Position numbers and translations under genes: made by a program. DNA of 64,000 bases, from assembly GCA_965242965.1 (NCBI GenBank), contig OZ251518.1, positions 1,792,001-1,856,000 of the forward strand, read 5' to 3'. Under the pieces are notes generated by a model. The model was not told the DNA's origin, searched no databases, and saw only the letters and a list, made by a program, of their open reading frames with translations. Numbering within the stretch: the first letter of the stretch is position 1; every line of letters begins with the position of its first letter. This document shows, one piece after another, positions 9,070-56,609 of this stretch. This stretch comes from Candidatus Poribacteria bacterium. Its GTDB lineage: Bacteria; Poribacteria; WGA-4E; WGA-3G.

Positions 9070-9965
9070 ATCGTCGCGCGGGGGCCTGATCTGTAGTTTG
9101 GGCTCGCCTGATTCCGAACAAGCGTCGCCGCCTGAACGTAGCGCGGGGGCCTGTCCCCCGCGAGCCCTCCTTTGTCTGAAGCAGGATTTGCAGGATTAAC
9201 AGGATTTGCAGGATTAGGTATCCTTGTCGATGCAAAACTTCTTTTCACCGTAGTGCGGGGCCTGATTTGTAGTTCGGGCTCGCCTGATTCCAAACAAGCG
9301 TCGCCGCCTGAACGTAGCGCGGGGGCCTGTCCCCCGCGATCTACCGACCTAAACGAAAACCGTCCGCAGTCCAGAGACTACGGACGGTTTCTGTGACGAA
9401 CGAGGCACGGCGAGGGAAACCCGCTCGGATGCGCGTGTGGCATCCGAGGGACCTCGCCCTACGGTGCGGCTGCGCGGTTTGGATAGCCGAAAAAGAAAAA
9501 GCATATTAAGGTCCTACAGACCTTGGCCATCTTCGCGGCGCACCACTCTATAGACATTAAGGTCTTACAGACCTAAAGAGACGTTTTATCGCGATAAAAC
9601 CCCCTAATCTTGCTAATCCGGAGCAGGATTACCACGATTATCACGATTATCACGATTATAGGTTCTGATGTACCAACACCCCGTGGCCTACCACAACCGC
9701 GCCGGCGTACCAGAGCTCTAATCCTGTGAAATCCTGGAAATCTTGGAAATCCTGCTCATATCTTGCTAATCCTGCTCCAGACAAATGAGATCGCGAGGGA
9801 CAGGCCCTCGCGCTACGGTGAAGGGGACGATTTTGGCACGGCGAGAGACAGGCCCTCGCGTTACGGTGAAGGGGACGATTTTGGCATGGCGAGAGACAGG
9901 TTTCCCTCGCCCTACGGTGGAAGGAACGATCGATGCATGGCGAGGGACAGGCCCTCGCCCTACGA
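9070..9965. repeat. Large REP mosaic, including 9-nt periodic AATCCTG repeats and a half four-palindrome element
   Basis: Many GTAG palindromes; GATTATCAC-like tandem; AAATCCTGG-type repeats. Confidence 0.9.
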
Positions 9966-14879: not shown

Positions 14880-15469
14880 CAGTAGGAGAGACCTCCTGGT
14901 CTCGATTGAAATCTCACCTACATCGTAGGGCGGGGGCCTGTCCCCCGCGATGGCTCAAGAACCGTTTTTTCATCGTAGCGCGGTTGCCTGTCCCCCGCGA
15001 TGTCCATCGTCAAGCGGTGACGTTTTAGGTCCGTTAGGACCTACATGTCTATAGATACACGTGTCGTGCCATTTTCAAGGTCCGTTAGGACCTTAATAAA
15101 AACACGCGTGGCCCTGGCAAAAACTATTAAGGACCTAAAGGACCTTAGGGTTTTTCGCAGCGCGCGTGCTATAGACATTAAGGTCCTGCGGACCTAAGAG
15201 AACAAGAGACGTTTTTTCGTTCTCCCCTCTCTGTAGTTTGTGATCGCCTGATCACAACGACTCAGGATCCGGCGATCCTGCCCTACAGGGCCTGGCGCAC
15301 GAACGATGGCGAGGGAAACCCGCTCGGATGCGCGTGTGGCATCCGAGGGCCCAAGCCCTACGATGAAGGGGGGCCCTTCTGCCGCCGTGGCCCCGATAGG
15401 CGCGCCGTCCTATTGCATCGAGACCAGGAGGTCTCGCCTACACGGGAAAACGAATTATGAAACACCCTC
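14880..15469. repeat. REP mosaic containing a four-palindrome element (15027-15195) and a solo MITE end (15455-15469)
   Basis: 14925-15220 closely matches 53546-53840. Confidence 0.9.
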
Positions 15470-29501: not shown

Positions 29502-30340
29502 CCGTAGCGCGGGGGCCTGTCCCCCGCGAGCGTTCAGTTGTCTGAAGCAGGATTTACAAGATTTATAGGATTAGCAAGATTAGGGGCTCTTGTCAACGCG
29601 AATTTCCTATTGCCCGTAGCGCGGGGGCCTGTCCCCCGCGAGCGTTCAGTTGTCTGAAGCAGGATTTACAAGATTTATAGGATTAGCAAGATTAGGGGCT
29701 CTTGTCAACGCGAATTTCCTCTTTACCGTAGCGCGGGGGCCTGTCCCCCGCGATCTCTCATTTGTTTGAAGCCGGATTAACCTAAGTAGTTCGGGATCGC
29801 CTGATCCCGAACAGGTCAAGATCGGGCGATCTTACCCTACAGAGACGAGACAAATTATCTGTCCCCCGCGATGTTAACTGTCTGGAGCAGGAGTTACAAG
29901 ATTTATAGGATTAGCAAGATTATCTCTCGCGCAACGAGCATTCTTTTCGCAATAGATGCCTCTTCAGGTCCTTTAGGACCTGCATGTCTATAGAAAAACG
30001 GACATGCCACCGTTTTCAAGGTCCGTTAGGACCTTAATGGAATGGCAGCCAAGCGAGTCAAGGCACATTAAGGACCTAAAGGACCTTAGGGTGCTCTGCG
30101 ATGCAGGATGCTATAGACATTAAGGTCTTACAGACCTAAAGCCCCGAGCGGAAACGCCACGGTTACCGTAGCGCGGGGGCCTGTCCCCCGCGATCTGCGA
30201 CCGAAACGAGAAACGTCCGCATCTTAGAGGCCACGGACGTTTGCTGTCACGACCGACGCATGGCGAGGGACAGGCCCTCGCCCTACGGTATAGAAGGAGG
30301 GCTTGAGGCATGGCGAGGGACAGGCCCTCGCCCTACGGTG
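29502..30340. repeat. REP mosaic with a 112-bp tandem duplication and a four-palindrome element (29966-30137)
   Basis: CCGTAGCGCGGGGGCC starts at 29502, 29614 and 29726. Confidence 0.9.
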
Positions 30341-34179: not shown

Positions 34180-34452
34180 ACCGTAGCGCGGGGGCCTGTC
34201 CCCCGCGATCTATCGACCTAAACGAAAACCGTCCGTACCCCAAAGGCCCCGGACGGTTTCTGTTAAGACCTAGGCATGGCGAGGGACAGGCCCTCGCCCT
34301 ACGGTGAAGGCGGCGCGCTATAGACATTAAGGTCCTACGGACCTAAAGAGACTTGCGGCGCGATACCCTCCTAATCCTGAAAATCTTGATAATCTTGAAA
34401 ATCCTGCTCATCTCTTGCTAATCGTGATAATCTTGTAAATCCTGCTTCAGAA
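34180..34452. repeat. REP mosaic plus 9-nt periodic repeats
   Basis: GTAG palindromes; AATCCTGAA/AATCTTGAT/AATCTTGAA/AATCCTGCT. Confidence 0.85.
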
Positions 34453-42836: not shown

Positions 42837-43136
42837 ATGGTATCCGAAGAATCCGTATTAGAGTCAATCAAGCAAATTATCGACCCGGAAATCGGCATCA
42901 ACATCGTTGACATGGGACTTATCTACGGCGTTGACATCAACGATACGACTGTCGATATCACGATGACCTTGACGAGTCCTGCCTGTCCTGCCGGCGGCCA
43001 AATTGTCAACGGCGCGCAGCACGTCGCGCAACAAATGGACGGCGTTGACGAGGTGAACGTGAGTGTCGTCTGGACACCGCGTTGGAGCATGGAAATGATG
43101 AGCGAGGACGCGAAGGACGAACTCGGCATCTTTTAG
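42837..43136 (+). CDS. DUF59/SufT-like metal-sulfur cluster assembly factor
   Basis: DPEIGINIVDMGL, TLTSPACP. Confidence 0.95.
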   Translation: MVSEESVLESIKQIIDPEIGINIVDMGLIYGVDINDTTVDITMTLTSPACPAGGQIVNGAQHVAQQMDGVDEVNVSVVWTPRWSMEMMSEDAKDELGIF

Positions 43137-43328
43137 GTTTTCGTAGTGGCGCAAGGCGTTCGGATACGTCTTCTGTGCGTACGTCTTCTGTGCAACGACG
43201 CTTTCGTCCTAGCACTGCCCGGTTGCGCCTCTCGCAAGATTGTGAGAGGCGTTCAACGTAAGTTTGCATCCTTGTTGTTGCATGCCGCGTGCCTAGTGCC
43301 CAGTTTTTCTACCGATGCAATGTTAGCA

Positions 43329-43697
43329 ATGCCCAGCAAACAGCCCAAAACCCTCAAGAAGCATGACACTGCCTTCCAGATTGTATGGAAGGACGCGCAC
43401 GTCAGTTGGTATCCGTATCCTTACCTGCGGCAGATGTGCCCGTGCGCCGAATGCGCTATCATCAGGCATAGGGGACAAGATATCCATTCCCTCTTTTCGC
43501 CGCAAGGTGATGGCGATGTAACGCTAATTGAGGTGAGAGCCGATATTCAGCCGTTGGATATCCAACTCGTCGGCCGCTATGCGCTTCAATTCAGTTGGAA
43601 CGATGGACACGCTTCCGGCATTTATCCGTTTGACGTGCTGCGCGAGATTTGTCCGTGTCCCGACTGCGCCCCTCAGGCATCATCAAACTCATCGTAG
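43329..43697 (+). CDS. DUF971 (GBBH-N-like) Zn-binding protein
   Basis: LRQMCPCAEC, VGRYAL..W.DGH.SGIY. Confidence 0.9.
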   Translation: MPSKQPKTLKKHDTAFQIVWKDAHVSWYPYPYLRQMCPCAECAIIRHRGQDIHSLFSPQGDGDVTLIEVRADIQPLDIQLVGRYALQFSWNDGHASGIYPFDVLREICPCPDCAPQASSNSS

Positions 43698-43740
43698 CGC
43701 GGGGGCCTGTCCCCTGTCCTGCCTAAGGAAAATCCGACAA

Positions 43741-44073
43741 ATGCAAACACCACAGTTACCCGAAATTTCCCCCCGCGCCCTTAAGCAGCAGCTTGACGAA
43801 AACAAATCCGTGCTGTTGCTTGACGTGCGCGAGCCGCACGAGTATGACATCGTGCATCTTGAGGGGGCGCGTCTCATCCCGCTCAACGAACTGCCGCACA
43901 ACGTGGATAGCCTCGCGCCGACGCAAGAAACCGTTGTCTATTGCCACCACGGCACGCGCAGCCTGTATGCCACCGCTTTTTTGCTCCAGAACGGATTTGA
44001 CAACGTCAAAAACCTTGAAGGCGGTATTGACAGATGGGCACTTGAGATTGATTCAACGATGAATAGATACTAA
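43741..44073 (+). CDS. Rhodanese-like sulfurtransferase
   Basis: LLDVREPHE, CHHGTRS, LEGGIDRW; AAGGA RBS. Confidence 0.92.
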   Translation: MQTPQLPEISPRALKQQLDENKSVLLLDVREPHEYDIVHLEGARLIPLNELPHNVDSLAPTQETVVYCHHGTRSLYATAFLLQNGFDNVKNLEGGIDRWALEIDSTMNRY

Positions 44074-44076
44074 GCA

Positions 44077-44496
44077 GTAGGAGAGCCTTCCTGGTCTTGA
44101 AGCAACCTCCCCGTAGGAGAGACCTCCCGGTCTCGATGCAATAGGGCCCCTTTCTCGTAGGGCGAGGGCCTGTCCCTCGCCATCGTCCGCGCAAGCCAAC
44201 GCTCGCGGGGGACAGGCCCCCGCGCTACGGGAAAAAACGGTTCTTAGGTCCGTAGGACCTTAATGTCTATAGCACGCTCACCAGCGAAGAATCCTAAGGT
44301 CCTTTAGGTCCTTAATGTGTTTTGCCAGGTCTGCGCGTGTTTTTATTAAGGACCTAAAGGACCTTGACATGGGCTTAACACGTTTTTCTATAGACATGTA
44401 GGTCCTAAAGGACCTAAGACAGCATCTTGCCGATGGCCAACGCGGGGGCTTGTCCCCCGCGCTACGGGAACATCGAGATCAGGAGGTCTCTCCTAC
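44077..44496. repeat. REP mosaic containing a four-palindrome element (44246-44415)
   Basis: Same repeat families as elsewhere in the window. Confidence 0.9.
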
Positions 44497-44517
44497 CGGG
44501 GAAAAGGAGAATTAACA

Positions 44518-45975
44518 ATGCGAATCATGCCTGAATTGAATAGCCTCCACTACGGCGATAACCTCCACATCATGCGCACATGGCGCGACGGATGGGTGGA
44601 CATCGCTTACGCCGATCCGCCGTTTAACAGCAAGGCGAACTATAACCAACTCTATCGTGTTGAAACCGATACCAAGAGCGGAAATCCCCGCTCCGCCTCC
44701 CTCAAAGCGTTTGAGGATACATGGACATGGGGCGCACCCGCAGTTGAACGCGTGCAACGCATTACAAATGCCCCGGCACATCCCGCCTATAAAGCCATCA
44801 CCGCGCTTCATATCCTCCTCGGAGACAGCGGCATGATGGCGTATCTGAGTTATATGGCGGAACGCCTTGTTGAAATCCACCGCCTCCTCAAACCCACGGG
44901 GAGTCTCTATCTCCATTGTGATAACACCGCGGGAGCGCATCTCCAGATTTTGTTGGATGACATCTTCGGGCCCAAGCAGTTTCGGAATGCGATTCGGTGG
45001 TGCTATTCTAACAGCGGCCGTTCAAAACGGTTTTTCGTCAAGAAGCACGATACTGTCTTCCTCTATACCAAAACCGACGCGGCGTATTGGGGAGATTACC
45101 GGATACCGATTAGCGACGAATATCTGGAAAGTCATTATCGGCATGTTGACGAACAAGGACGCAGATGCCGCGTTCGCGTTGACGCTGGGCAAACGCGAGT
45201 CTACTATCCCGAAGAGGGAATGACGTGCAACGATTGGTGGACAGATATTCCTTCCCTGAATTCTGTCGCGAAGGAGCGGCTGGGATATCCGACACAGAAG
45301 CCGGTCGCGTTGCTGGAACGCATCATTGCGGCTTCGTCGAGAGAAGGCGACATTGTGCTGGATCCGTTTTGTGGCTGCGGCACGACAGTCGTCGCCGCGG
45401 ATACCCTGAAGCGGCAGTGGGTTGGCGTGGACATCAACCCGATCGCGCTGGATATTATCAAAACGCATCGGTTTCCGGGACGCGACATTCCGATAACAGG
45501 TATCCCTGCGGATTTTGCGAGTGCGGAACGGCTAGCGCAGGAGAATCGTCGTCATTTTGAGATATGGGCTATCGGCTGTGTGCCGGGCCTCGCGCCGAAC
45601 GAGCGCGGCGGTGCCGACGGTGGGATTGACGGTGTCGGTAACACCGTCGAGAAACCGGCGGCTGGATTCAAACCGTTGGTGCTTGCGCAAGTGAAGAGCG
45701 GCAAGTTTTCGCTGAGTCATCTCCGTGATTTTCTGCACGTGATAGAACGCGAAAAGGCCGCCCTGGGGATTTACCTGACGCTGTTTCCGGTGACATCTCC
45801 TAGCGCGGCGGCAGAGATAGCCAACAAAGGCACAGTTGTTATCGGCACGGAGACGTTTCCGCGCGTGCAATGCTATTCAATGTCGGAGCATTTTGATGGG
45901 CAGCGTGGCAGGTTGCAGTTGCCGCAGTTGACAGATCCGTATACGGGAAAACCGTTGCAAAATCTGTTGTGGTAG
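44518..45975 (+). CDS. Beta-class N6-A/N4-C DNA methyltransferase fused to an Mrr-like PD-(D/E)XK domain
   Basis: DPPFN, YPTQKP, DPFCGCGTT; C-terminal DGGIDG...QVKSG. Confidence 0.9.
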   Translation: MRIMPELNSLHYGDNLHIMRTWRDGWVDIAYADPPFNSKANYNQLYRVETDTKSGNPRSASLKAFEDTWTWGAPAVERVQRITNAPAHPAYKAITALHILLGDSGMMAYLSYMAERLVEIHRLLKPTGSLYLHCDNTAGAHLQILLDDIFGPKQFRNAIRWCYSNSGRSKRFFVKKHDTVFLYTKTDAAYWGDYRIPISDEYLESHYRHVDEQGRRCRVRVDAGQTRVYYPEEGMTCNDWWTDIPSLNSVAKERLGYPTQKPVALLERIIAASSREGDIVLDPFCGCGTTVVAADTLKRQWVGVDINPIALDIIKTHRFPGRDIPITGIPADFASAERLAQENRRHFEIWAIGCVPGLAPNERGGADGGIDGVGNTVEKPAAGFKPLVLAQVKSGKFSLSHLRDFLHVIEREKAALGIYLTLFPVTSPSAAAEIANKGTVVIGTETFPRVQCYSMSEHFDGQRGRLQLPQLTDPYTGKPLQNLLW

Positions 45976-45997
45976 TCGCTGAGATCCAATTCAACCG

Positions 45998-46866
45998 GTA
46001 GGAGAGATCTCCTGGTCTCGATGTTGTTATCGGGACAAGGATGTCCCTCCTACCAGAAGCGATGCCCCGTAGGCGAGACCTCCTGGTCTCGATGCAATAG
46101 GGCCCCTTCATCGTAGGGCGAGGGCCTGTCCCTCGCCGTGCCTCGATCAGAACGAGAAACGGCCTTGGGCGGCGGGTGGTTTTCGCGCGGGTCGGGCGCT
46201 CGCGGGGGACAGGCCCCCGCGCTACGGGCCCGGAAAGGGTTCTCCTCGCTATGCCCCGTTCGGGATCAGGCGATCCCGAACTACAGTCTCCTCAAGGTCT
46301 GTAAGACCTTAATGTCTATAGTTCGCGCAGACCGCCAAGTCCTCAAGGTCCTTTAGGACCTTAATGTTTTCTGCGGCGGTGCATCTGCTGCCTATTAAGG
46401 ACCTAAAGGACCTTAGCGTTTTTTTCGGTCGGCGGGTGACTATAGACATGCAGGACCTAAAGGACCTGAAGAGATGTTTTCATGGGTGCGCTCGCGGGGG
46501 ACAGGCCCCCGCGCTACGGTTTGCCATGCCGCCTTCTTTCACCGTAGGGCTTGGGCCCTCGGATGCCACACGCGCAGGCGAGCGGGTTTCCCTCGCCGTG
46601 CCTCGGTCAGCACGGGAAACGGCCTTGGATGGCGGGTGGTTTTCGCGCAGATCGAGCACTCGCGGGGGACAGGCCCCCGCGCTACGGTGAAAAAACGGCA
46701 CGTCACCGTAGGGCGAGGGCCTGTCCCTCGCCGTGCCTCGGTCAGCACGGGAAACGGCCTTGGATGGCGGGTGGTTTTCGCGCAGGTCGAGCGATCGCGG
46801 GGGACAGGCCCCCGCACTACGATGAAGGGGCCCCTATTGCATCGAGACCGGGAGGTCTCTCCTACC
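45998..46866. repeat. Large REP mosaic containing a four-palindrome element (46295-46467)
   Basis: Modules also found at 48570-49425. Confidence 0.9.
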
Positions 46867-46950
46867 GGAAAAAACGAGAACAGTTGCATTTTTACGGAAC
46901 TTCTGCGATACTCTACCCCATCACAAACAGGAACCGATAGGAGTTGCAAC

Positions 46951-48474
46951 ATGAAACGATTGACGATACTGCTCATAAGTTACGCGCTGTTTTGCACACA
47001 ACCCTTCGCGCGCGCAGAGGTGACATTGCCGAACATTTTCGGCGATAACATGGTGCTGCAACGCGACATGCCTGTCCCAATCTGGGGATGGGCAGCCGCA
47101 GGTGAAGAAGTTGCAGTCACGCTGAAAGACACTGGCCACACCGCGAAGACGACAGCAGACGCGAAAGGGAATTGGCAGGCAAAACTGCCAGCCATGTCAG
47201 CCGGTGGGCCCTATACCCTGCACATCGCCGCCAGCAATACGTTTGAATTGACGAACGTGATGTTCGGCGAAGTGTGGATATGTTCTGGGCAATCAAACAT
47301 GGAATGGCCGGTGCGTGCTTCCAAGGATAGCGAGGCAGAAATCGCAGCGGCGGATTATCCAATGATTCGGCTGTTCAATGTGCCACACAAAGCCTCCGGC
47401 TTGTTGATGCCTGATGTTGAGGCAGAATGGCATCCTACCACACCGGAAACTATCAAAAACTTCTCCGCTGTCGCCTATACTTTTGGACGGAAACTTTACA
47501 AAAACCTCGATGTGCCTATCGGGTTAATCAACACATCGTGGGGTGGCACGCGCATCGAGCCGTGGACACCCCCGGTAGGTTTCAATTCGGTGCCTGCGCT
47601 GGAATCTATTTCCAAGGAACTCCAAGATACTCACGCGAGATATCGGGCTGAACTTCCAGAGAAAATGGCGCAGATTGAAGCCTGGATAGCGGAAGCGCGC
47701 AAGGCTTTGGAGACAGGCGAAGCCATCACGCCGATGCCGGACAATCGACATCCGTTAACGCATTACGCCCGGCCGACAGGGCTTTACAACGGGATGGTGC
47801 ATCCGCTCGTCCCCTTTGCGATGCGCGGCGCGATCTGGTATCAAGGCGAATCCAACTTGAGAGACAGAATGCTCTACCACGAAAAAATGAAGGCACTCAT
47901 CAACGGGTGGCGCGCGGTTTGGAAACAAGGCGACTTTCCTTTCTATTTCGTCCAACTCGCTCCGTTCACCTACGGCGGAGGTGCCAGTCCCTACTTCCTG
48001 CCAGAAATCTGGGAGGCACAAACGGCGACGTTATCGGTGCCGAATACCGGCATGGCGGTAACAACCGATATCGGTAATTTGCGAGACATCCACCCGCGTA
48101 ATAAGCAGGAAGTCGGCAGACGACTCGCGCTGTGGGCACTTGCCAAGACTTACGGCAGAGAAGACGTTACCTATTCCGGCCCGCTTTACAAATCAATGGA
48201 AGTCGATAGGAACACCGTCCGCATCAGTTTTGATTTTATCGGCGGCGGCTTGATGGCGCGCGATGCCGAACCTCTCACATGGTTTGAGATTGCCGGCGAG
48301 GATAAAAACTTCGTCACAGCCGATGCGACGATTGAGGGAGACACCGTCGTCGTTTGGTGTGACGCGGTGGCTCAGCCTGTCGCTGTTCGATTCGGCTGGC
48401 ATCAAACGGCAGAACCGAATCTGATAAACAAGGCAGGGTTACCAGCCTCGCCGTTTCGGACGCATCCGTGGTAG
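46951..48474 (+). CDS. Sialate O-acetylesterase (SASA/SGNH family)
   Basis: Signal peptide; CSGQSNM, WYQGESN, DIHPRNK, GLPASPFRT. Confidence 0.93.
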   Translation: MKRLTILLISYALFCTQPFARAEVTLPNIFGDNMVLQRDMPVPIWGWAAAGEEVAVTLKDTGHTAKTTADAKGNWQAKLPAMSAGGPYTLHIAASNTFELTNVMFGEVWICSGQSNMEWPVRASKDSEAEIAAADYPMIRLFNVPHKASGLLMPDVEAEWHPTTPETIKNFSAVAYTFGRKLYKNLDVPIGLINTSWGGTRIEPWTPPVGFNSVPALESISKELQDTHARYRAELPEKMAQIEAWIAEARKALETGEAITPMPDNRHPLTHYARPTGLYNGMVHPLVPFAMRGAIWYQGESNLRDRMLYHEKMKALINGWRAVWKQGDFPFYFVQLAPFTYGGGASPYFLPEIWEAQTATLSVPNTGMAVTTDIGNLRDIHPRNKQEVGRRLALWALAKTYGREDVTYSGPLYKSMEVDRNTVRISFDFIGGGLMARDAEPLTWFEIAGEDKNFVTADATIEGDTVVVWCDAVAQPVAVRFGWHQTAEPNLINKAGLPASPFRTHPW

Positions 48475-48477
48475 TCA

Positions 48478-49423
48478 TCGTAGGGAGGGCCCTCGCATGC
48501 CCTGGGGCACGCGGGCGATCGCGGGGGACAGGCCCCCGCGCTACGGTAGGTGAGGCCGTCTCCGTTTCACCGTAGGGCGAGGGCCTGTCCCTCGCCATGC
48601 CTCGATCGGAACGGAAACGGCGTTGATCGGCGTGCGGTTTTTGCCCGGGTCGAGCACTCGCGGGGGACAGGCCCCCGCGCTACGGGCCCGGAAAGGGTTC
48701 TCCTCGCTATGCGCCGTTCGGGAGCAGGCACTCCCGAACTACAGTCGCCTCAAGGTCCGTAAGACCTTAATGTCTATAGCACGCGCGGATGCAATACCCC
48801 TCAAGGTCCGTAGGACCTTAATGTTTTCCTGCTGCGATGCGGCTGCTGCAGATTAAGGACCTAAAGGACCTTAGTTTTTTCGGTCGGGATTACTATAGAC
48901 ATGCAGGACCTAAAGGACCTAAAGAGATGTTTTCACGGGGGCGATCGCGGGGGCCTGTCCCCCGCGCTACGATGAAAAAACGTGCCGATTACCGTAGGGC
49001 GAGGGCCTGTCCCTCGCCGTGCCTCGGTTGAGGAAACGGCCTTGGCTGGCTGGCGGTTTTCGCTGCAGGTCGGGCGATCACGGGGGACAGGCCCCCGCGC
49101 TACGGGCCAGGAAGGGTTCTCCTCGCCATGCCCCGTTCGGGATCAGGCGATCCCGAACTACAGTCTCTCTTAGGTCCGTAGGACCTTAATGTCTATAGCA
49201 CGCCGATGCGGTACCTCTCAAGGTCCGTAGGACCTTAATGTTTTCCGGCGTTGTGTCTGTTGTCTATTAAGGACCTAAAGGACCTTAGTGTTTTTTTTCG
49301 GTCGAGGGTGCTATAGACATGCAGGTCCTAACGGACCTGAAGAGATGAGAGATCGCGGGGGCCTGTCCCCCGCGCTACGATAAAAACGCCCCTCACCGTA
49401 GGGCGAGGGCCTGTCCCTCGCCA
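48478..49423. repeat. REP mosaic with a ~420-bp tandem module and two four-palindrome elements (48753-48920, 49172-49338)
   Basis: Two sequential copies of the same module order. Confidence 0.9.
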
Positions 49424-49465
49424 AGCAACTCAGGATAACCTTTACGCATTGGGAATAACAAAAAA

Positions 49466-50608
49466 ATGAAAATTACCGCTATCAAAACCTTTATGGCGCG
49501 CTTCGGGAATCGTCCGCGGGGGCTTATCAAGGTTGAAACTGATGAGGGACTTTATGGCTGGGGCGAGGCATATTCCACAGGTCCCGATCTTTCCGTCGCG
49601 CCCATCGCCGACTACATCTTTGAAATGATTCAAGGCGATGACCCGAGGCGCATCGAGTATATCATGCTGAAACTGCATCAGCAGTTCCGTTTTCCACCGG
49701 GTGGTGCCGGGCTCGCCGTTATTTCCGCCGTAGATCACGCGCTGTGGGATATCAGCGGGAAGGCGGCGGGATTGCCAGTCTACATGCTCCTCGGTGGCCA
49801 TGCCCGCGACAGGGTGCGCGTCTACCGGAGCATCGGCGGCAGAGACGGCATTGAAGCAGCAGACCAGGCGCGCAAACTGAACGAAGAATGGGGATTCACC
49901 GCCTTTAAGACGAGCCCTTATCAACTCAATCCGGATGCAGACAGATGGGGGCGCGTTTGCGCAGCAGCGGCGAACTATTTTGAGGAACTCCGAGACTGCA
50001 CGCCTGATGATTGGGAGTTCGCGTTCGATCCGCATGCGAAAATCTTCGAGCCGATCCGTGCGTTGCAGCTTGCCAACGCGCTTGCACCGTATGACCCCTA
50101 TTTTTACGAGGAGCCGCTCCGTCCCGAACATATACCGGCATGGAAACGGCTGAGGGAACAGATGCAGGTGCCGCTCGCCACCGGCGAATCGCTCTACACC
50201 CGCTTTGAATTTCTCTCTCTGATTGCAGCGCAGGGTGCAGACATTATCCAACCCGATGTTTGCGTGTGTGGCGGATTGCTAGAGATGCGCAAAATCGCCG
50301 CAATCGCCGAGGCACACTATGTCAGCGTCGCGCCGCACAACCCCATGGGACCACTGGCGACAGCCGTCAACGTCCATTTTGCCGCAGCAACGCCGAACTT
50401 CAAAATCCTCGAATACCTTCTGCCGACAGAAACGGAATGGAACGCGTGGGTAGATGAACCCTATCTGCCGAAAGATGGATATTTGGAACTGCGCGAGCGG
50501 CCGGGGCTCGGCGTAGAGATAAACGAATCGGCGATTACAGACAACGAGTATATCCATTGGCAGCGGACATGTCCAATTCGGCCCGATGGTTCAACTGGGT
50601 ATATTTAG
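49466..50608 (+). CDS. Mandelate racemase/enolase superfamily acid-sugar dehydratase (DgoD-like)
   Basis: ALWDISGK, DPH, EEP, TGE, QPD, PHN. Confidence 0.92.
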   Translation: MKITAIKTFMARFGNRPRGLIKVETDEGLYGWGEAYSTGPDLSVAPIADYIFEMIQGDDPRRIEYIMLKLHQQFRFPPGGAGLAVISAVDHALWDISGKAAGLPVYMLLGGHARDRVRVYRSIGGRDGIEAADQARKLNEEWGFTAFKTSPYQLNPDADRWGRVCAAAANYFEELRDCTPDDWEFAFDPHAKIFEPIRALQLANALAPYDPYFYEEPLRPEHIPAWKRLREQMQVPLATGESLYTRFEFLSLIAAQGADIIQPDVCVCGGLLEMRKIAAIAEAHYVSVAPHNPMGPLATAVNVHFAAATPNFKILEYLLPTETEWNAWVDEPYLPKDGYLELRERPGLGVEINESAITDNEYIHWQRTCPIRPDGSTGYI

Positions 50609-50637
50609 GTTAATCGGTCTCTCCCACTCCCTCCCCG

Positions 50638-50926
50638 GTAGGCGCGACCTCCTGGTCTCGATGTTCCCGTAGCGCGGGGGCCTGTCCCCCGCGATCGTTG
50701 GATTGCGCCGACGATGGCGAGGGACAGGCCCTCGCCCTACGGTGAAGGGGAAGCGTTTTTTTTCATCGTAGCGCGGGGGCCTGTCCCCCGCGATCTCCAT
50801 CGTCATGATGTGTGTTTCCCATGCTGTAGTTTGTGATCGCCCGATCACAAACGGGACCCGATGCCCTCCCCGGTAGGCGCGACCTCCCGGTCTCGATGCA
50901 ATAGGACAAACCTCCCAGTCCCGATG
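50638..50926. repeat. REP mosaic
   Basis: Shares modules with 35638-35993. Confidence 0.85.
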
Positions 50927-50939
50927 CAAACAGAAAACA

Positions 50940-52418
50940 TCACGCCCAGCTGGCATCAACATAAGCCCTGAGATGTTTCAACGCGCTGCCATTATCAATC
51001 ACAGTTTGAGCACGTTTGACAGCACGGTGCGGTTCCGGGCAAATCCCCAACAGATAATCTACCATCGCCGCGTTTAGGACAATTCTGTCATAGAGATGCC
51101 CTTTCTGTCCGGATAGCGCGGCGATGCCAGCATCGGCGAACGCCTGCGCACTGACGCTTTCGGGACGCGGGCTCCGGGCATAGTCAAACCCGTAGTCAGA
51201 AGGATTAATATCCACGGCAAAATCTTCGCGGTGTCCGTTAAGGCATCGGAAACCTTGCGAATAATTAATCGCCATTCTATCAACGGTAGACGGTTTTCCG
51301 AGGCGGAGCGCGTAATGACTCGTGCCTTCCTCACCCTTAACAGCAACTGCGCCGTCAAACCCGCGTTCCCACGCCAATTGCAGGAGCGGTTTCTCATAAC
51401 CGATATGATAATAGCCTAGCACCATGTAGTTTGCCGTAGCGCGAGTGCCTGTCCTTCGCGTGTCTTCTCCTGCAGCGGAGAAAAACTGCTGTGCTTTTTC
51501 CGTAGCCGCCCACGGTGGACGTTTCTTAATATGCACCCGCAGTTCCCGCAAAGCGTAGGCACCCGGCGAATACTCGCGCTGACTAATATACCCGAACCCG
51601 ACCATTTTGTCGGCGATGCGTTCCGCTGTTTGTTCAAGGGATAGCGTCGTATTCGCGCCGAGCGCGTTCAAAATCGCCTCTTCGGTAACGCCGTTTTTCG
51701 GTGGCATCGCATCGACACTATGCAGCACCGAAGGCTCACCGAGTGCGGCGCGGACAGCTGCCACGAAGAGCGTTGGGCGAAAGTAGCGCGTCGCGCCATC
51801 GTAAGGTTGCCCGAAATGGGTGAGTGAATTGACAGCGATAGGCCGCACATCTTCCGGTGCGAAAAAGGCATCAAGGTAGCCGCGCACCTCCTCGTAGGTC
51901 TCGCGGTTCATCCGCTGCCCGATAAGCGCAGCGGCTTTGAGTGCCGGTTTGACAGCATCGCTGAGGAGCGCGGTGCACATCCGCCGCGTCTCGGCGTAAT
52001 CCAGATGTTTCGCACGTAAAATCTTCTCTAGCGCGGCGACGACAATTGCCTCCGTTGCATTGGCAGGGACGTATCCGCGCCCAGGGGTCATCAGGTAGCG
52101 AATCTCCGCAGGCAACTTCTCTTCAAGCGCAGACTGGTGGTGCCTGAACGCCTCACGTTCCTGCGGACTCCACTGCGTCGCTTCAGGGAAATAGTTGCGG
52201 AGCGTCATGGCAGAAAAAAACGCGCCCATCTGTGCCGCCGAGGCAGTCTCCTCTCGCGGCAGTTCGCCCGACAGCGATTTGAGGATAATTTTCAATACGG
52301 ATGCAGGTTGCGGCCCATCTGGGTTTCCTAACGGGCGCGTCTGATGCGGGCCTGTGCAAACCCTTGCCTGCGCCTCAAGGAGTTCAGGATTAGGGCCTGG
52401 ATAATCAAATGTGTTCAT
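50940..52418 (-). CDS. Anthranilate phosphoribosyltransferase-like protein (TrpD2/YbiB-like)
   Basis: AQMGAF, PYDG, PPKNGVT, KGEEG. Confidence 0.8.
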   Translation of the reverse strand: MNTFDYPGPNPELLEAQARVCTGPHQTRPLGNPDGPQPASVLKIILKSLSGELPREETASAAQMGAFFSAMTLRNYFPEATQWSPQEREAFRHHQSALEEKLPAEIRYLMTPGRGYVPANATEAIVVAALEKILRAKHLDYAETRRMCTALLSDAVKPALKAAALIGQRMNRETYEEVRGYLDAFFAPEDVRPIAVNSLTHFGQPYDGATRYFRPTLFVAAVRAALGEPSVLHSVDAMPPKNGVTEEAILNALGANTTLSLEQTAERIADKMVGFGYISQREYSPGAYALRELRVHIKKRPPWAATEKAQQFFSAAGEDTRRTGTRATANYMVLGYYHIGYEKPLLQLAWERGFDGAVAVKGEEGTSHYALRLGKPSTVDRMAINYSQGFRCLNGHREDFAVDINPSDYGFDYARSPRPESVSAQAFADAGIAALSGQKGHLYDRIVLNAAMVDYLLGICPEPHRAVKRAQTVIDNGSALKHLRAYVDASWA

Positions 52419-52520
52419 TTTTACGTTTCCTTGAAAATTTATGGTTTGATGTCATGATACCACATTGCCACAGTTAACGCAACATGTGATTTTTCAATAC
52501 TAGGACAATTCCGAAAAAAC

Positions 52521-52549
52521 TTGACAAAATCGCGAAAAGAAGTTAAACT
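52521..52549 (+). promoter_or_regulatory. sigma70 promoter
   Basis: TTGACA-17 bp-TAAACT. Confidence 0.65.
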
Positions 52550-52554
52550 ATTAA

Positions 52555-53532
52555 TTGGAATTTTTTCTGATGAAAATGGAAGCGGATTGCAACAAACCTT
52601 ATATCATGCAAACTCACATCTATGCGCGCGGCGCGAAGGAAACCTGTCCCTCGCGTGCCTTCAGTTACACGTTAGGCATCATCATTTTTATCCTCGCTGT
52701 CGGCGGGTGTGATGAACCAACTCCCGTCACCATCACGCCGGAAGAGACAGACAGCATCGTCCTGCGCGACTACATACTGGCAGCGGATGAGACATGGGAT
52801 GCGGAGAAAACCTACACCGTGCATGGCGAATTGGAGATTCCGCCGGACATCACCTTGCGCATCCCGCCAGAGACTACCGTGAGATTCGGACGCGACGCGC
52901 TGGTGAAGGTGAGAGGCATCCTGAAAGTCGGAGTCGATGCAGAACGAGCTGGGGCAGCCACACCGGTGAAATTCACTTCGGATATCCCAGGTCCGCAGCG
53001 CGGCGATTGGCAGGGAATCCTCTTCGATCACACGCATGGACTTGACAGTTTCGTCAGAGGTGCGCAGATTGAATACGCAACCGTCGCCGTGGATATCAAG
53101 ACGACCTCGCCGACAATCGCAGATTGCACGTTCCGCCTGAACGATGTCGCCATCGCTTTAGATGGCAGCAACGCGGTTATCCAGCATAACGCATTCGTGG
53201 ATAACAACATCGGCATCCGCACTATTGGGCGGCAAACGCGCCCGAAAATTGAGCGAAACAGCATCACCCGCAACGAGATAGGCATTCACTGCGAAAATGT
53301 GCAGTCAATTATCCAATATAATAACCTGGGAGGCAACATCCGCGCCCTCAAGTTATGGGTAAAGTTCGACCTGTATGCGCCTGACAATTGGTGGGGCACA
53401 CTGGATGCCGAGTCCATAGACACCGCGATAGTCGATGCCGCTGATCCGGAATTGCTGCATAAACAGGTAGGCACCGTCACCTACGAACCGATTGCCGATG
53501 CACCGATTCCAGATGCCGGCCCCAATCGGTGA
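52555..53532 (+). CDS. Right-handed beta-helix lipoprotein (start uncertain)
   Basis: Lipobox-like VGGC; GDWQGI; N..GI repeats; NWWG. Confidence 0.85.
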   Translation: MEFFLMKMEADCNKPYIMQTHIYARGAKETCPSRAFSYTLGIIIFILAVGGCDEPTPVTITPEETDSIVLRDYILAADETWDAEKTYTVHGELEIPPDITLRIPPETTVRFGRDALVKVRGILKVGVDAERAGAATPVKFTSDIPGPQRGDWQGILFDHTHGLDSFVRGAQIEYATVAVDIKTTSPTIADCTFRLNDVAIALDGSNAVIQHNAFVDNNIGIRTIGRQTRPKIERNSITRNEIGIHCENVQSIIQYNNLGGNIRALKLWVKFDLYAPDNWWGTLDAESIDTAIVDAADPELLHKQVGTVTYEPIADAPIPDAGPNR

Positions 53533-53545
53533 TGCTTGATGTTCC

Positions 53546-54033
53546 CGTAGCGCGGGGGCCTGTCCCCCGCGATGGCTCAAGAACCGTTTTTTTTATCGTA
53601 GCGCGGGGGCCTGTCCCCCGCGATCGCCATCGACACGATGCGTTTTAGGTCCTTTAGGACCTTAATGTCTATAGAAACCCGTGTCGTCCCGTTGTCAAGG
53701 TCCTTTAGGTCCTTAATAAAAACACGCGCGGACCCGGCAAAAACTATTAAGGACCTAAAGGACCTTAGGGTTCTTCGCTGGCGTGCGAGCTATAGACATT
53801 AAGGTCCTACGGACCTGAAGAGAACAAGAGACGTTTTTTCCGTAGCGTGGCGTGAACGATGGCGAGGGCCTGTCCCTCGCCCTACGGTGAGGAAAGGCGT
53901 TTTTTATCGTAGCGCGGGGGACAGGCCCCCGCGAGTGTTAGATTGCGCGAGCGATGGCGAGGGACAGGCCCTCGCCCTACGATGAAGAGGGGGCTGCCGC
54001 CCTACTGCATCGAGACCGGGAGGTCTCTCCTAC
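53546..54033. repeat. REP mosaic containing a four-palindrome element (53647-53816)
   Basis: Near copy of 14925-15220. Confidence 0.9.
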
Positions 54034-54096
54034 AAGGATGCATTGAGATATGAAATTTGCCGGGGATCCCTTGAACATCCGCTAGGAACAACAAAA

Positions 54097-55317
54097 ATGC
54101 TCACTATTCTGAACATCTCACAAAACCACTACATCCGCGGCGGTTCTGACCGGTATTTTTTCACGATGGGCGAGGTGTTGCAAAAACAGGGACACCGCGT
54201 GATTCCGTTCACCGCGGCGAGCCCGAAAAACGAACCGACAGAATGGGAACGCTATTTTCCACGCGGTGCCGATTTTGAGCATCCCAGCGCGCTTGACTTA
54301 GGGCGGTTTCTATACTCACGCGATGCTGTCCAATCAATGCGCCGGTTATTACGGGACATAGATGACTCCGCGCCAAAAACTGTAGACATCGCGCATTTCC
54401 ACATTTACTACGGCAAGTTGACTGCCTCCATCTTGGGGGTGCTGAAACAAGCAGGCATTCCGCTGATTCAAACGTTGCACGAGTATAAACTGACCTGTCC
54501 TGTCTACAGTCATCTGTCAAACGATCAGATTTGCGAGGCGTGTGCGGGGAAACATTTTTGGCGCGCGCTCCCGAAGCGGTGCAACCGAGGTTCGCTTGCC
54601 CGCACTGCCTTGAGCGTCACCGAATCTTACGTCTCGCGCAGCCTCGGCGCGGTTGACAAATTCGACCATTTTATCTCTGTCTCGCATTTCTTAAGGAAAA
54701 AGATGGTTGAACACGGTATCCCCGAAACGAAGATTTCGACGGTTCATAACTTCGTTGATGTGTCGGATTTCACGCCAAATTTCGCCGAGGGAGAGTATCT
54801 GCTCTATTTCGGCAGGGTGCATCAGAGTAAGGGGATTTTCACCTTGATAGAGGCGGCGGCTCCGCTGAAACAGGTGCCGCTCATCATCGTCGGTGATGGC
54901 GAAGCACTGCCCGAAGTCCGGCGACAGGTGGAACAGGCTAACTGCGAACATATCCGACTTGTCGGGTTCAAACAAGGCGATGAACTTCGCGAACTGATTG
55001 CGGGAAGCATCTGCACGCTGTTGCCCTCGGAATGGTATGAAAACTGCCCGATGTCCGTTTTAGAATCCTACGCGTATGGCAAACCTGTCATCGGTGCGGA
55101 TATCGGCGGAATTCCAGAACTCATCGCCGATGGCGTAGATGGCTTTCTCGTTCCCTCCGGTGGGACAGAAGCATTACGCGAGAAACTGCTTTGGATGTAT
55201 GAACACAAAGCGGAGGCGGCAGAGATGGGACGTATCGGCCGCCACAAAATGGAAACTCAATTTAACGCGGACATTCATTATGAAAACATTATGAATGTCT
55301 ATCAAAATTTCTTGTAG
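54097..55317 (+). CDS. Glycosyltransferase family 4
   Basis: TLHEYKLTCP, PSEWYENCPMSVLES, GGIPE. Confidence 0.95.
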   Translation: MLTILNISQNHYIRGGSDRYFFTMGEVLQKQGHRVIPFTAASPKNEPTEWERYFPRGADFEHPSALDLGRFLYSRDAVQSMRRLLRDIDDSAPKTVDIAHFHIYYGKLTASILGVLKQAGIPLIQTLHEYKLTCPVYSHLSNDQICEACAGKHFWRALPKRCNRGSLARTALSVTESYVSRSLGAVDKFDHFISVSHFLRKKMVEHGIPETKISTVHNFVDVSDFTPNFAEGEYLLYFGRVHQSKGIFTLIEAAAPLKQVPLIIVGDGEALPEVRRQVEQANCEHIRLVGFKQGDELRELIAGSICTLLPSEWYENCPMSVLESYAYGKPVIGADIGGIPELIADGVDGFLVPSGGTEALREKLLWMYEHKAEAAEMGRIGRHKMETQFNADIHYENIMNVYQNFL

Positions 55318-55371
55318 GCGTGCCCTCCTGGTCCCAAGCGACAAACCCGAAAAAGTAGACGCTTCTCAATC

Positions 55372-55559
55372 CGTAGCGCGGGGGCCTGTCCCCTGCGAGC
55401 GTTTGGTAATCCGAGACATGGCGAGGGACAGGCCCCCGCCCTACGGGGACAGAGACAAGAAACCCTCCCGTTACCGTAGCGCGGGGGCCTGTCCCCCGCG
55501 AACCTTCGCACATCAAGTAAACGCATCTCAAACCGTAGCGCGGGGCCTGTCCCCCGCGA
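55372..55559. repeat. REP cluster
   Basis: GTAGCGCGGGGGCCTGTCCCCCGCG copies. Confidence 0.85.
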
Positions 55560-55586
55560 ACTTCACACATGAAAAGGAGAAACATT

Positions 55587-56609
55587 TTGGCAGCTAAAGA
55601 CAAACAGACACTTGGAACAACAAAAACTTCACTAGTAACGGGCGGCGCGGGCTTCCTCGGAGCCCATGTCGTCAATGAACTCCTTCGCGATGAAAACCAA
55701 CGCGTCGTTGTTCTCGATGACCTGAGCGGCGGCTTTCGCGAAAATACTAACAGTGCCGCGACGTTCGTTGATGGCAGCATTCTCGATGCACCGTTGGTGA
55801 ACCGGCTGTGCGAGCAGCATCAGTTTGACTACATATACCACCTCGCGGCCTACGCCGCCGAGGGGTTGAGCCACTTCATCAAGCGGTTTAACTATCAGAA
55901 TAACCTCATCGGCAGCGTGAATCTAATAAACGCCGCCGTGAACTATAACGTCAAACACTTCGTGTTCAGTTCGTCCATCGCCGTGTATGGCACGAATCAA
56001 CTGCCGATGCACGAGGAGCTGATACCGATGCCGGAAGATTCTTACGGCATCGCCAAATACGCCGTGGAGCAGGAACTCGCTATATCCAAACACATTTTTG
56101 GCATGGATTACACCATCTTTCGTCCGCATAATGTCTATGGCGAGGGACAGAACATCAGCGACAAGTACCGGAACGTCATCGGCATTTTCATGAATAACAT
56201 CATGAAGGGTGAACCGTTGCGTATTTTCGGCGATGGTGAACAGACGCGCGCCTATACGCACATTGCCGATGTCGCGCCGCATATCGCTCGCGCCGTGGAG
56301 ATACCGGAGGCATCGTGTGAGACGTTCAACGTCGGTTCTGACACCCCTGCCACCGTTAACGAATTAGCAGAACTCGTCATGCAGGCGATGGGAAAAGAGG
56401 TGCCGGTTATCCGTGTTCAGGCGCGGGAAGAGGTAAAACACGCCTATTGCTCCCACGAAAAATTCCAGAAAGTCTTCGGGATACATTCCACGGTATCTCT
56501 GGCAGAGGGTCTAAATCGGATGGCGGCTTGGGCGAAATCCATCGGCGCGCGTCCAGCAACCGGATACTCCGATATCGAAATTCGTAAGAATTTGCCCGAG
56601 GGGTGGTAA
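55587..56609 (+). CDS. NAD-dependent epimerase/dehydratase
   Basis: TGGAGFLG, YGIAK, NVYG; TTG start after AAGGAG. Confidence 0.93.
   Translation: MAAKDKQTLGTTKTSLVTGGAGFLGAHVVNELLRDENQRVVVLDDLSGGFRENTNSAATFVDGSILDAPLVNRLCEQHQFDYIYHLAAYAAEGLSHFIKRFNYQNNLIGSVNLINAAVNYNVKHFVFSSSIAVYGTNQLPMHEELIPMPEDSYGIAKYAVEQELAISKHIFGMDYTIFRPHNVYGEGQNISDKYRNVIGIFMNNIMKGEPLRIFGDGEQTRAYTHIADVAPHIARAVEIPEASCETFNVGSDTPATVNELAELVMQAMGKEVPVIRVQAREEVKHAYCSHEKFQKVFGIHSTVSLAEGLNRMAAWAKSIGARPATGYSDIEIRKNLPEGW

Follow-up and report, generated by a model that had tools for sequence, protein, structure and literature searches.

What kind of element lies at positions 15027-15195 of the Candidatus Poribacteria DNA analysed here, and what keeps it in shape? 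The stretch, which we refer to as the window, comprises 64,000 nt (C1:1792001-1856000 of the genome designated G000, with a chromosome of 5.66 Mb and 54% G+C and a second contig, C2, of 38 kb). An initial annotation had described seven full copies of an element with four palindromes and three variable spacers in this window. It had proposed a multi-site protein-binding or recombination substrate, a folded strand mobilised by an HUH enzyme, or a mini guide array.

All seven reported copies align over their whole length. The box pattern AGGTCCNNNGGACCT, allowing at most one mismatch, occurs nine times in the window, compared with 0.02 occurrences expected from shuffled sequences. A first profile built from the seven copies yielded 380 loci in the whole genome and a second profile, in a single orientation, yielded 383. 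The genome-wide search recovered each of the seven copies at the place where it had been described, and both partial copies were also found by the profile, one of them being a half element and the other an end with one box (Table 1). The mixed orientation noticed in the window was confirmed with the re-oriented profile (three copies plus, four minus). Of the 383 loci, 283 measure at least 150 nt (147 plus, 136 minus) and about 100 are partial. All of them are located on the chromosome, and the profile search revealed no locus on contig C2.

Table 1. Full copies, partial copies and parts of the first copy, in window coordinates.
Feature	Position	Strand	Basis
Full copy, canonical orientation; predicted single-strand fold z −9.3	15027..15195	+	sequence, alignments
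P1 of this copy	15027-15042		
ATGTCTATAG of this copy	15045-15054		
Spacer 1 of this copy (22 nt)	15055-15076		
P2 of this copy, followed by AAT	15077-15094		
Central spacer of this copy (28 nt)	15098-15125		
P3 of this copy, preceded by ATT	15129-15146		
Spacer 3 of this copy (22 nt)	15147-15168		
CTATAGACAT of this copy	15169-15178		
P4 of this copy	15181-15195		
Full copy, minor subfamily, central spacer unrelated; P4 in the double-changed form AGGTCTTACAGACCT	29966..30137	+	alignments
Full copy, main subfamily; upstream of a methylase/Mrr-like gene; not in the syntenic intergenic regions of G001 and G002	44246..44415	-	alignment, profile, synteny
Full copy; syntenic intergenic region of G002 64 bp without profile match	46295..46467	-	alignment, profile, synteny
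Full copy in an intergenic region that also holds the next copy; no copy in the syntenic region of G001 (about 360 bp) or G002 (136 bp)	48753..48920	-	alignment, synteny
Full copy, central spacer 26 nt	49172..49338	-	alignment
Full copy near the family consensus	53647..53816	+	alignment
Half element, beta type: box, ATGTCTATAG, spacer, box, TAAT; adjoins CAAGATT-type 9-mers	9498..9590	+	profile positions 112-204; G000 position 1801498
Truncated end: CTATAGACAT, TA, one box AGGTCCTACGGACCT	34313..34350	+	profile; G000 position 1826330

The consensus of the 283 copies reads, in this order, tail, P1 (AGGTCCTTTAGGWCCT), NN, ATGTCTATAG, spacer 1, P2 (AAGGTCCTTTAGGTCCTT), AAT and the central spacer, and continues in its second half with ATT, P3 (AAGGACCTAAAGGACCTT), spacer 3, CTATAGACAT, NN, P4 (AGGTCCTACGGACCT) and tail. 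Each box consists of two AGGWCCT heptamers with a spacing of 8-9 nt, and the heptamer itself is palindromic around W. The outer box together with NN and ATGTCTATAG is mirrored at the opposite end, so that terminal inverted repeats are present. The description as four palindromes applies in part: four boxes are indeed there, but the inner ones are mostly tandem, non-palindromic heptamer pairs. In 165 strictly parsed copies, which are 164-175 bp long, P2 has the sequence AAGGTCCTTTAGGTCCTT in 134 and P3 the sequence AAGGACCTAAAGGACCTT in 135 cases, and the arms could pair with each other in 29 copies for the inner box and in 106-108 copies for the outer boxes.

The two ends of the element are not equivalent. 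P1 is a 16-nt box with a TTT loop and P4 a 15-nt box with a TAC loop, which gives the element a direction. Among the strictly parsed copies, P4 is the exact reverse complement of P1 in 13 of 165, compared with 40 when partners are shuffled. The GTAG head of the neighbouring REPs had been reported as missing, and an unpaired GTAG tag is indeed absent, but GTAG is present inside the 15-nt box form. The repeated unit extends about 12 nt past the coordinates first assigned to it, and some copies carry the tails AAAACGTCTCTT...AAGAGACGTTTT. Five distant near-identical pairs of copies share 13-22 nt on their left side (AAAACNTCTCTTC); on the right, three of them share 2-3 nt only and, in the other two, the similarity continues for 56 and 78 nt into REP-type repeats. 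Based on these shared flanks, the real unit is about 190 nt long.

For spacer lengths we used a relaxed pattern, which parsed 223 of 247 oriented copies. Spacer 1 measures 20-26 nt (22 nt in 131 copies), the central spacer 23-31 nt (27 nt in 64 and 28 nt in 73 copies) and spacer 3 21-26 nt (23 nt in 186 copies). Spacer lengths are narrow in the family, although the geometry is not absolute, since six of the 223 copies carry a central spacer of 14 nt. In the window, the central spacers are 28, 28, 29, 28, 29, 26 and 28 nt long, that is, 28 nt in four copies and not in five as originally counted.

Copies show a median pairwise identity of 75% and a median nearest-neighbour identity of 92%, as determined for 247 of the 283 copies (36 without exact 10-mers or recognisable outer boxes were left out), and the family is old. 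Between nearest neighbours (201 pairs), we found 0.022 differences per site in the 93 box columns compared with 0.169 in the 76 spacer columns; for all pairs, the respective values are 0.062 and 0.465. The boxes and the 10-nt ATGTCTATAG/CTATAGACAT hence differ about eight times less than the spacers, part of the box invariance being built in by copy selection: 20 box columns are fixed by the exact-10-mer selection pattern, and without them the box figure becomes 411/(73 × 201) = 0.028. As the initial annotation had assumed, it is the boxes and not the spacers that are under constraint. The spacers do have a family consensus, with a main subfamily of 146 of the 247 copies and several minor ones with unrelated spacers. 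Combinations of spacer types fail a four-gamete reading and suggest an exchange of modules at the boxes.

Folded as a single strand, a copy is predicted to be far more stable than shuffled versions of it (z −9.3 as DNA and −9.9 as RNA), as is the case for any quasi-palindrome. Pairing was examined in an alignment of the seven window copies and 13 copies of the related genome G001. Within the boxes, changes on both sides of the dyad occur in 11 cells versus 4.2 in shuffles, and none of 500 shuffles reaches 11, with the caveat that related sequences can beat shuffles without any structure. Three of the four boxes show a double change of the closing pair from C:G to T:A. For pairing between P1 and P4 and between P2 and P3, only 7 cells versus 6.0 in shuffles were counted (172 of 500 reach this value), and the same changes become mismatches there. 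Spacers 1 and 3 are not complementary to each other (0.457 within one element, 0.552 between different elements). We therefore rejected a long single hairpin as the selected form, given the lack of complementarity between the spacers, the mismatch between P1 and P4 and the lack of long-range covariation. The feature that is kept is the dyad in each box and not a long hairpin, so that covariation, which the initial annotation had pointed to as a check, is found within each box but lends no support to one long folded strand.

The element is an intergenic repeat in a genome rich in other repeats. Stop-to-stop frames of at least 200 codons make up 81% of the chromosome, and 341 of the 383 loci do not overlap with them. 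The frames that do hold copies appear to resemble translated repeats, as far as can be told from five of them, and a location within genes was discarded because these host frames read like translations of the repeat itself. Copies are dispersed evenly over the chromosome yet locally clustered, with 51 gaps below 300 bp compared with 7.7 expected, and in the window the genes adjoining them are ordinary or housekeeping genes. A simple detector counts about 6,200 GTAG-headed REP hairpins in the genome. For 257 of the 283 copies, a REP is found at most 80 nt away on at least one side (median distance, 17-19 nt), while 26 copies have none within 80 nt. Many copies have flanks in common, the typical order being REP, ATCTCCATCGTCAAGAGGTGGCGTTTT, element, AAGAGACGTTTTTT, REP, and the linkers between element and REPs are conserved. 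The left flank is loosely fixed as TTTT or CTCTT. The CATCGT that recurs on either side of the element is part of the REP flanks and also occurs at a REP flank without an element.

Two possible roles in this setting were considered and rejected. Against a terminator, the direction of the element is independent of the flanking genes (72 same versus 98 opposite, relative to the upstream gene), and a terminator consensus scan catches only the inner boxes of three copies. Against a restriction-site decoy, GGWCC is not specially avoided outside the elements (observed/expected 0.78 in a Markov model; AGGWCCT 1.43).

A DNA search in 41 related genomes gave many matches in G001, two weak ones in the sister species G002 and none in the other 38. 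The 18-nt end motif with at most one mismatch occurs 651 times in G000, 107 times in G001 (an assembly of 210 contigs that is 86% complete) and 10 times in G002, with 0 matches of the reversed control; the exact motif is found 546, 80 and 3 times, respectively, and the G002 matches are decayed fragments or relics. The family is confined to one genus, the exact end motif having 0 matches in 173 other genomes of the phylum from 30 genera. Full copies are also present, among the matches listed (one genome per species scanned), in Candidatus Poribacteria bacterium isolate AGPOR5, where one copy has the same flanks as the first copy of the window. Of the further matches to the inner-box pattern among those listed, the ones inspected at the sequence level were rejected as unrelated: two in a Bacteroidales-type record consist of tandem TTAAGGACC-type 9-mers, and one from Acidobacteriota is a single site. 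The main REP pattern occurs 4,245 times in G000, 1,006 times in G001 and 572 times in G002, which corresponds to 0.15, 0.11 and 0.017 element ends per REP. The element thus does not simply track the REPs.

Occupancy of individual sites also differs between the relatives. Three intergenic regions that together hold four of the window copies measure 905, 967 and 577 bp here and 64, 136 and 156 bp in G002. None of the five window copies between 44246 and 53816 has a profile match in the syntenic intergenic regions of G002 or in those parts of the region that were found in G001. In the other direction, G001 copies are missing at the aligned G000 counterparts, and at one orthologous site a degenerate solo box in G000 corresponds to a full copy in G001 that is preceded by a rearranged piece resembling a half element. 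These are insertion polymorphisms between relatives. Of the comparison of filled and empty sites proposed earlier, the difference at syntenic positions was therefore obtained, but not a clean allele pair with G001 or G002, because the intergenic regions are rearranged between the species. The contigs of four public DNA runs, searched for window positions 43000-56000, also contain no filled and empty alleles and end at repeats, and the joints listed from these runs have sides below 30 nt and represent repeat cross-mapping.

We interpret the element as a selfish or neutral duplicative repeat, and neither as a guide array nor as a sequence with a host function at each locus, and assign this reading a probability of about 0.7. 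The family is a genus-restricted set of non-coding, non-autonomous interspersed repeats whose massive amplification is lineage-specific. The boxes and the 10-mer would be recognised by a candidate enzyme, supplied in trans, when the element is copied; only lineages that keep boxes and 10-mer would go on multiplying, while the spacers drift.

Constraint on the boxes could also be imposed by the host. The element might have been recruited as a binding array that offers eight AGGWCCT sites to a putative dimeric DNA-binding protein, with selection at the level of the locus keeping the boxes. BIMEs of enterobacteria are bound by the host proteins IHF, gyrase and Pol I, and nucleoid-associated, regulatory or topological protein-binding roles have been proposed for them. 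For the element described here we consider such a recruitment unlikely. The heptamer, palindromic around a free W, is of the kind that would be expected: T and A alternate at the central position without compensation, within the box or between P2 and P3 (T/A 136, T/T 57, A/A 42, A/T 10), as in GGWCC-type recognition sites, which fits recognition of duplex DNA better than of a hairpin. The symmetry-keeping double change in the box, on the other hand, is not needed by a protein half-site. Boxes, 10-mer and TTAAT are (nearly) invariant across two species, the spacing is narrow, and the boxes are conserved even between nearest neighbours, but the array is nearly gone from the sister species (3 exact ends in G002 versus 546, plus relics) and absent from the 173 other genomes of the phylum. 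The syntenic sites compared do not show a conserved occupancy, decay is visible in many copies, and the numbers of elements per type of intergenic region (++ 132, -- 102, +- 82, -+ 63) reveal no preference for the promoter side.

The partial loci indicate how the element is built and how it decays. Seventy-two of them are half elements, units of about 75 nt (box, NN, ATGTCTATAG, 22-nt spacer, box, TAAT) with two spacer types, alpha and beta, and with their own flanks in each subfamily. In one group, the spacer resembles spacer 1 and the half element is placed between two REP types; in the other, it resembles the complement of spacer 3 and the half element adjoins CAAGATT-type 9-mers. A full element can therefore be described as one alpha half followed, after a centre of 27-28 nt, by a beta half in inverted orientation, plus the short tails. 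Further derivatives lack both inner boxes. Outside all loci of at least 60 nt we counted 61 strict boxes, 38 of which are solo boxes in exactly the flanks of a full element. With its tails, a solo box reads CGTC-TCTT-AGGTCC-loop-GGACCT-AAGA-GACG. The loop is P1-like in about 17 solo boxes and P4-like in 13, a ratio expected if deletions run between direct repeats common to P1 and P4. Half elements also collapse to a single box. All of these derivatives can be explained by deletion between the short direct repeats that two boxes share at the base of a hairpin, and also by the action of a recombinase on the boxes. Only 11 pairs of copies are at least 96.5% identical, and six of these are local tandem duplicates, so that recent dispersal is rare and part of the growth is due to segmental duplication of REP-plus-element blocks.

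A quite unlikely possibility is a reversible system in which an undescribed enzyme, specific for a structure or a site, acts on the dyad of the box and inserts a 154-bp module at solo boxes or removes it again, so that a full element, a half element and a solo box would be different states of the same system. The T-T or A-A mismatch of the inner boxes would then distinguish the strands, similar to the extrahelical bases of attC, and the gene for the enzyme would be located at another place in the genome and be common to G000 and G001. A site-specific reading along the following lines appears very doubtful: the boxes would be crossover sites of a site-specific recombination module, whose 154-bp inner part integrates and excises at solo boxes through a recombinase acting in trans, the inner boxes being accessory sites as in res or attC. 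The 38 solo boxes with either a P1 or a P4 loop, the orthologous pair of G000 and G001 and the collapse of half elements to one box would all agree with such a module, but slippage between the 6-7-nt direct repeats at the hairpin foot gives the same products without an enzyme. Arms of 6-7 nt and a centre of 2-4 nt are short compared with the known sites of tyrosine or serine recombinases. The head-to-tail joint CTATAGACAT-NN-box-NN-ATGTCTATAG, with one shared box, has 0 matches in the chromosome, no recombinase adjoins the copies, and each of the outer boxes, P1 and P4, retains its own type of loop in the different subfamilies, unlike a box derived from the target. In integron attC sites, nested sites are arranged as R''-L''...L'-R', and the element is similar by analogy in having four nested inverted sites, a variable centre and a structure more conserved than the sequence of its middle. 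Unlike attC, it is dispersed between housekeeping genes in both orientations and without cassette arrays, and its box differs from the attC core sites.

A mini guide array or small-RNA gene, in which the boxes would be processing or handle sequences and the three spacers guides, is highly improbable despite the length-constrained variable stretches between conserved repeats and the strong predicted fold (z about −9 to −10), since 283 copies with heavy decay do not look like a gene, orientations are mixed without a link to gene direction (72 versus 98), there is no Rfam match, and the repeats are nested and inverted and not direct as in CRISPR-like arrays. The guide array put forward initially is excluded by the spacers themselves, which have a consensus, are inherited in lineage-specific subfamilies, match nothing in phage and plasmid collections and, when compared with the genome after masking of every copy, give 18 marginal matches from 669 spacers, several of which point to one place that resembles an unmasked fragment. 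A search for RNA runs containing window positions 43000-51000 listed none.

We searched for the machinery that might act on the element in several ways. PF01797 was detected twice in the genome, in a broken IS200/IS605-like gene and in a RAYT-like gene. A RAYT gene flanked by the repeat, as considered in the initial annotation, was not found: the sole RAYT-like gene is not flanked by the element, the nearest copy being 7.5 kb away. RAYT-like genes are also present in the copy-poor G002, and none was found in G001. The 27 genes closely bracketed by copies include several restriction-modification genes but no transposase or recombinase, and a scan of these 27 and 13 further proteins identified no cognate gene between flanking copies. 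No autonomous element with the same ends was detected among 112 unpaired ends of the genome, where three left-right intervals of 6-9 kb hold ordinary genes. Viral contigs yielded 12 chance matches to the 18-nt end pattern, none with the structure of the element, and a best profile score of 11 bits. We also found no target-site duplication: the flanks are inverted and not direct, and the five distant near-identical pairs end without a direct repeat.

IS200/IS605-derived elements have subterminal hairpins but neither inverted ends nor target duplications, and they insert 3' of a fixed short target by means of a Y1 transposase. For the element, no duplication is seen, the boxes are hairpin-capable and show dyad covariation, and a broken IS200/IS605-like copy is present in the genome, but the ends are inverted and the left flank is only loosely fixed. 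In view of the covariation within the dyads, the missing target duplication and the association with REPs, the most likely mode for the selfish or neutral repeat would be that a RAYT or an IS200/IS605-type HUH enzyme recognises small hairpins formed by a single strand, and we offer this as a tentative proposal.

The initial remark that the element matches no type that can be named still applies. Rfam gave no match at the gathering threshold in the whole window, and neither searches with the motif strings nor those combining Poribacteria with REP, MITE, REPIN or RAYT retrieved a published description. The observations that the initial annotation had named as refuting its account were not made: the spacers diverge faster than the repeats, their lengths are narrow, and no described family was matched.

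Bacterial MITEs include the Correia/NEMIS elements of Neisseria and ERIC/IRU. Like these, the element is non-coding, forms a quasi-palindrome in the range of 100-200 bp, has conserved inverted ends and is dispersed between genes and polymorphic among relatives. Unlike MITEs, it has no target duplication and no parent insertion sequence, and its conserved boxes are internal as well as terminal. It is not a MITE, since both the target duplication and the parent element are missing.

REPINs are inverted REP doublets mobilised by RAYTs (Bertels and Rainey 2011, PMC3116915). The element resembles them in several respects: two inverted units, an alpha and an inverted beta half, form a hairpin, singlets occur beside doublets (the 72 half-size loci), there are hundreds of intergenic copies that persist in the lineage, and the stems are conserved while the linker drifts. 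A tagged REP unit of 20-40 nt is not found, however. The unit of the element is about 75 nt long with two boxes, compared with a REP of about 25 nt in REPINs, GTAG occurs only in the 15-nt box and CGTC is paired. In addition, no RAYT is flanked by the element, and its copy number does not follow that of the REPs. Lacking both a tagged REP unit and a flanked RAYT, it is not a REPIN either.

GTAG- and CGTC-tagged REP superfamilies, as well as REPs nested in larger palindromes, are described by Di Nocera et al. (2013, PMC3733652). The solo box with its tails is likewise a small palindrome that starts with CGTC, but its CGTC is paired with GACG, and the stem and loop sizes and the CCA tail given in that paper do not fit. 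The BIMEs of enterobacteria (BIME-1, RIP, RIB; see also PMC2817692) combine REPs with conserved non-REP motifs. Similar to BIMEs, the element forms an intergenic mosaic of small palindromes and conserved linkers; it lies near a REP in 257 of 283 copies, has linkers in common with the REPs, and its modules recombine. Unlike in BIMEs, the boxes are not REPs, carry no unpaired GTAG or CGTC tag and consist of a heptamer dyad with a free central W, no IHF-type site was noticed, and the element also occurs away from REPs (26 of 283 copies with none within 80 nt). It is therefore an interspersed intergenic repeat akin to MITEs, REPINs and BIMEs that is a member of neither the MITEs nor the REPINs, and the looser notion of a REP-associated, BIME-like mosaic fits it best.

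The element at 15027-15195 thus belongs to a real, abundant, genus-restricted and previously undescribed repeat family with an unusual box design. It illustrates the extent to which non-coding repeats can fill a bacterial genome, with intergenic regions of 577-967 bp that correspond to 64-156 bp in the sister species, and it is a clean example of a few short motifs that stay fixed while the sequence between them drifts. An enzyme that reads AGGWCCT dyads, if found, would extend the so far short list of recognition modules of miniature bacterial elements. For work on the genomes of sponge symbionts, the practical consequence is that short-read assemblies are interrupted by such repeats at nearly all gene boundaries.

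GTAG-headed REP hairpins of several families occur at an extreme load across the whole genome, where a simple detector counted ∼6,200 of them. The main pattern (GTAGSGCGRGGGCCTGTCCCYCGC) is present 4,245 times, compared with 572 times in the sister genome G002. Comparison of three intergenic regions of the window with the syntenic region of G002 (L028) revealed lengths of 577-967 bp in the window versus 64-156 bp for the G002 counterparts, and the extra length consists of REPs and the element. The only RAYT-like (REP-associated transposase-like, PF01797) gene of the genome is flanked on both sides by another repeat, which translates as recurring GAGAPELQ-like strings.

Short 9-mer arrays of the CAAGATTTT / CAGGATTAG type are located directly upstream of beta-type half elements, the ∼75-nt units carrying two boxes. 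Among the matches listed from a scan for the inner-box pattern, two loci (L011 and L013) of a MAG named Tidjanibacter carry arrays built from several different tandem 9-mers (TTAAGGACC, TTTTCAATT and TTTTGGCCC types) upstream of a gene. These arrays are unrelated to the element.

Copies of the element closely bracket 27 genes, four of which are of restriction-modification type: a Type III res plus endonuclease, two Type ISP enzymes and a DUF1156 protein. The methylase/Mrr-like fusion gene of the window has many paralogues in the other two genomes of the genus (G001 and G002), with DNA identities of 67-86%.

Coordinates of the features described (chr, chromosome C1 of the source genome G000)
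Feature	Location	Strand	Remark
REP hairpins, examples	window 14926-15008; 48500-49430		GTAG-headed
Expanded intergenic regions	window 45975-46880; 48474-49466; 53532-54043		compared with L028
RAYT-like gene (L052)	chr 3147583-3147918	-	inside a 370-codon open frame
9-mer arrays	window ∼9440-9500		also at ∼15 other loci
Bracketed restriction-modification-type genes	chr 535605-538379; 3486558-3489722; 3621775-3625029; 5425835-5428822
Methylase/Mrr-like fusion gene	window 44518-45975	+	N6/N4 DNA methylase domain; weak Mrr-like nuclease match

With the elements masked, some palindromic hexamers are almost completely avoided throughout the genome: GACGTC was found 22 times against 2,322 expected occurrences, and GRCGYC, AGCGCT, TTCGAA and CATATG show a similar avoidance. 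These hexamer counts suggest that several restriction systems are active in this organism.
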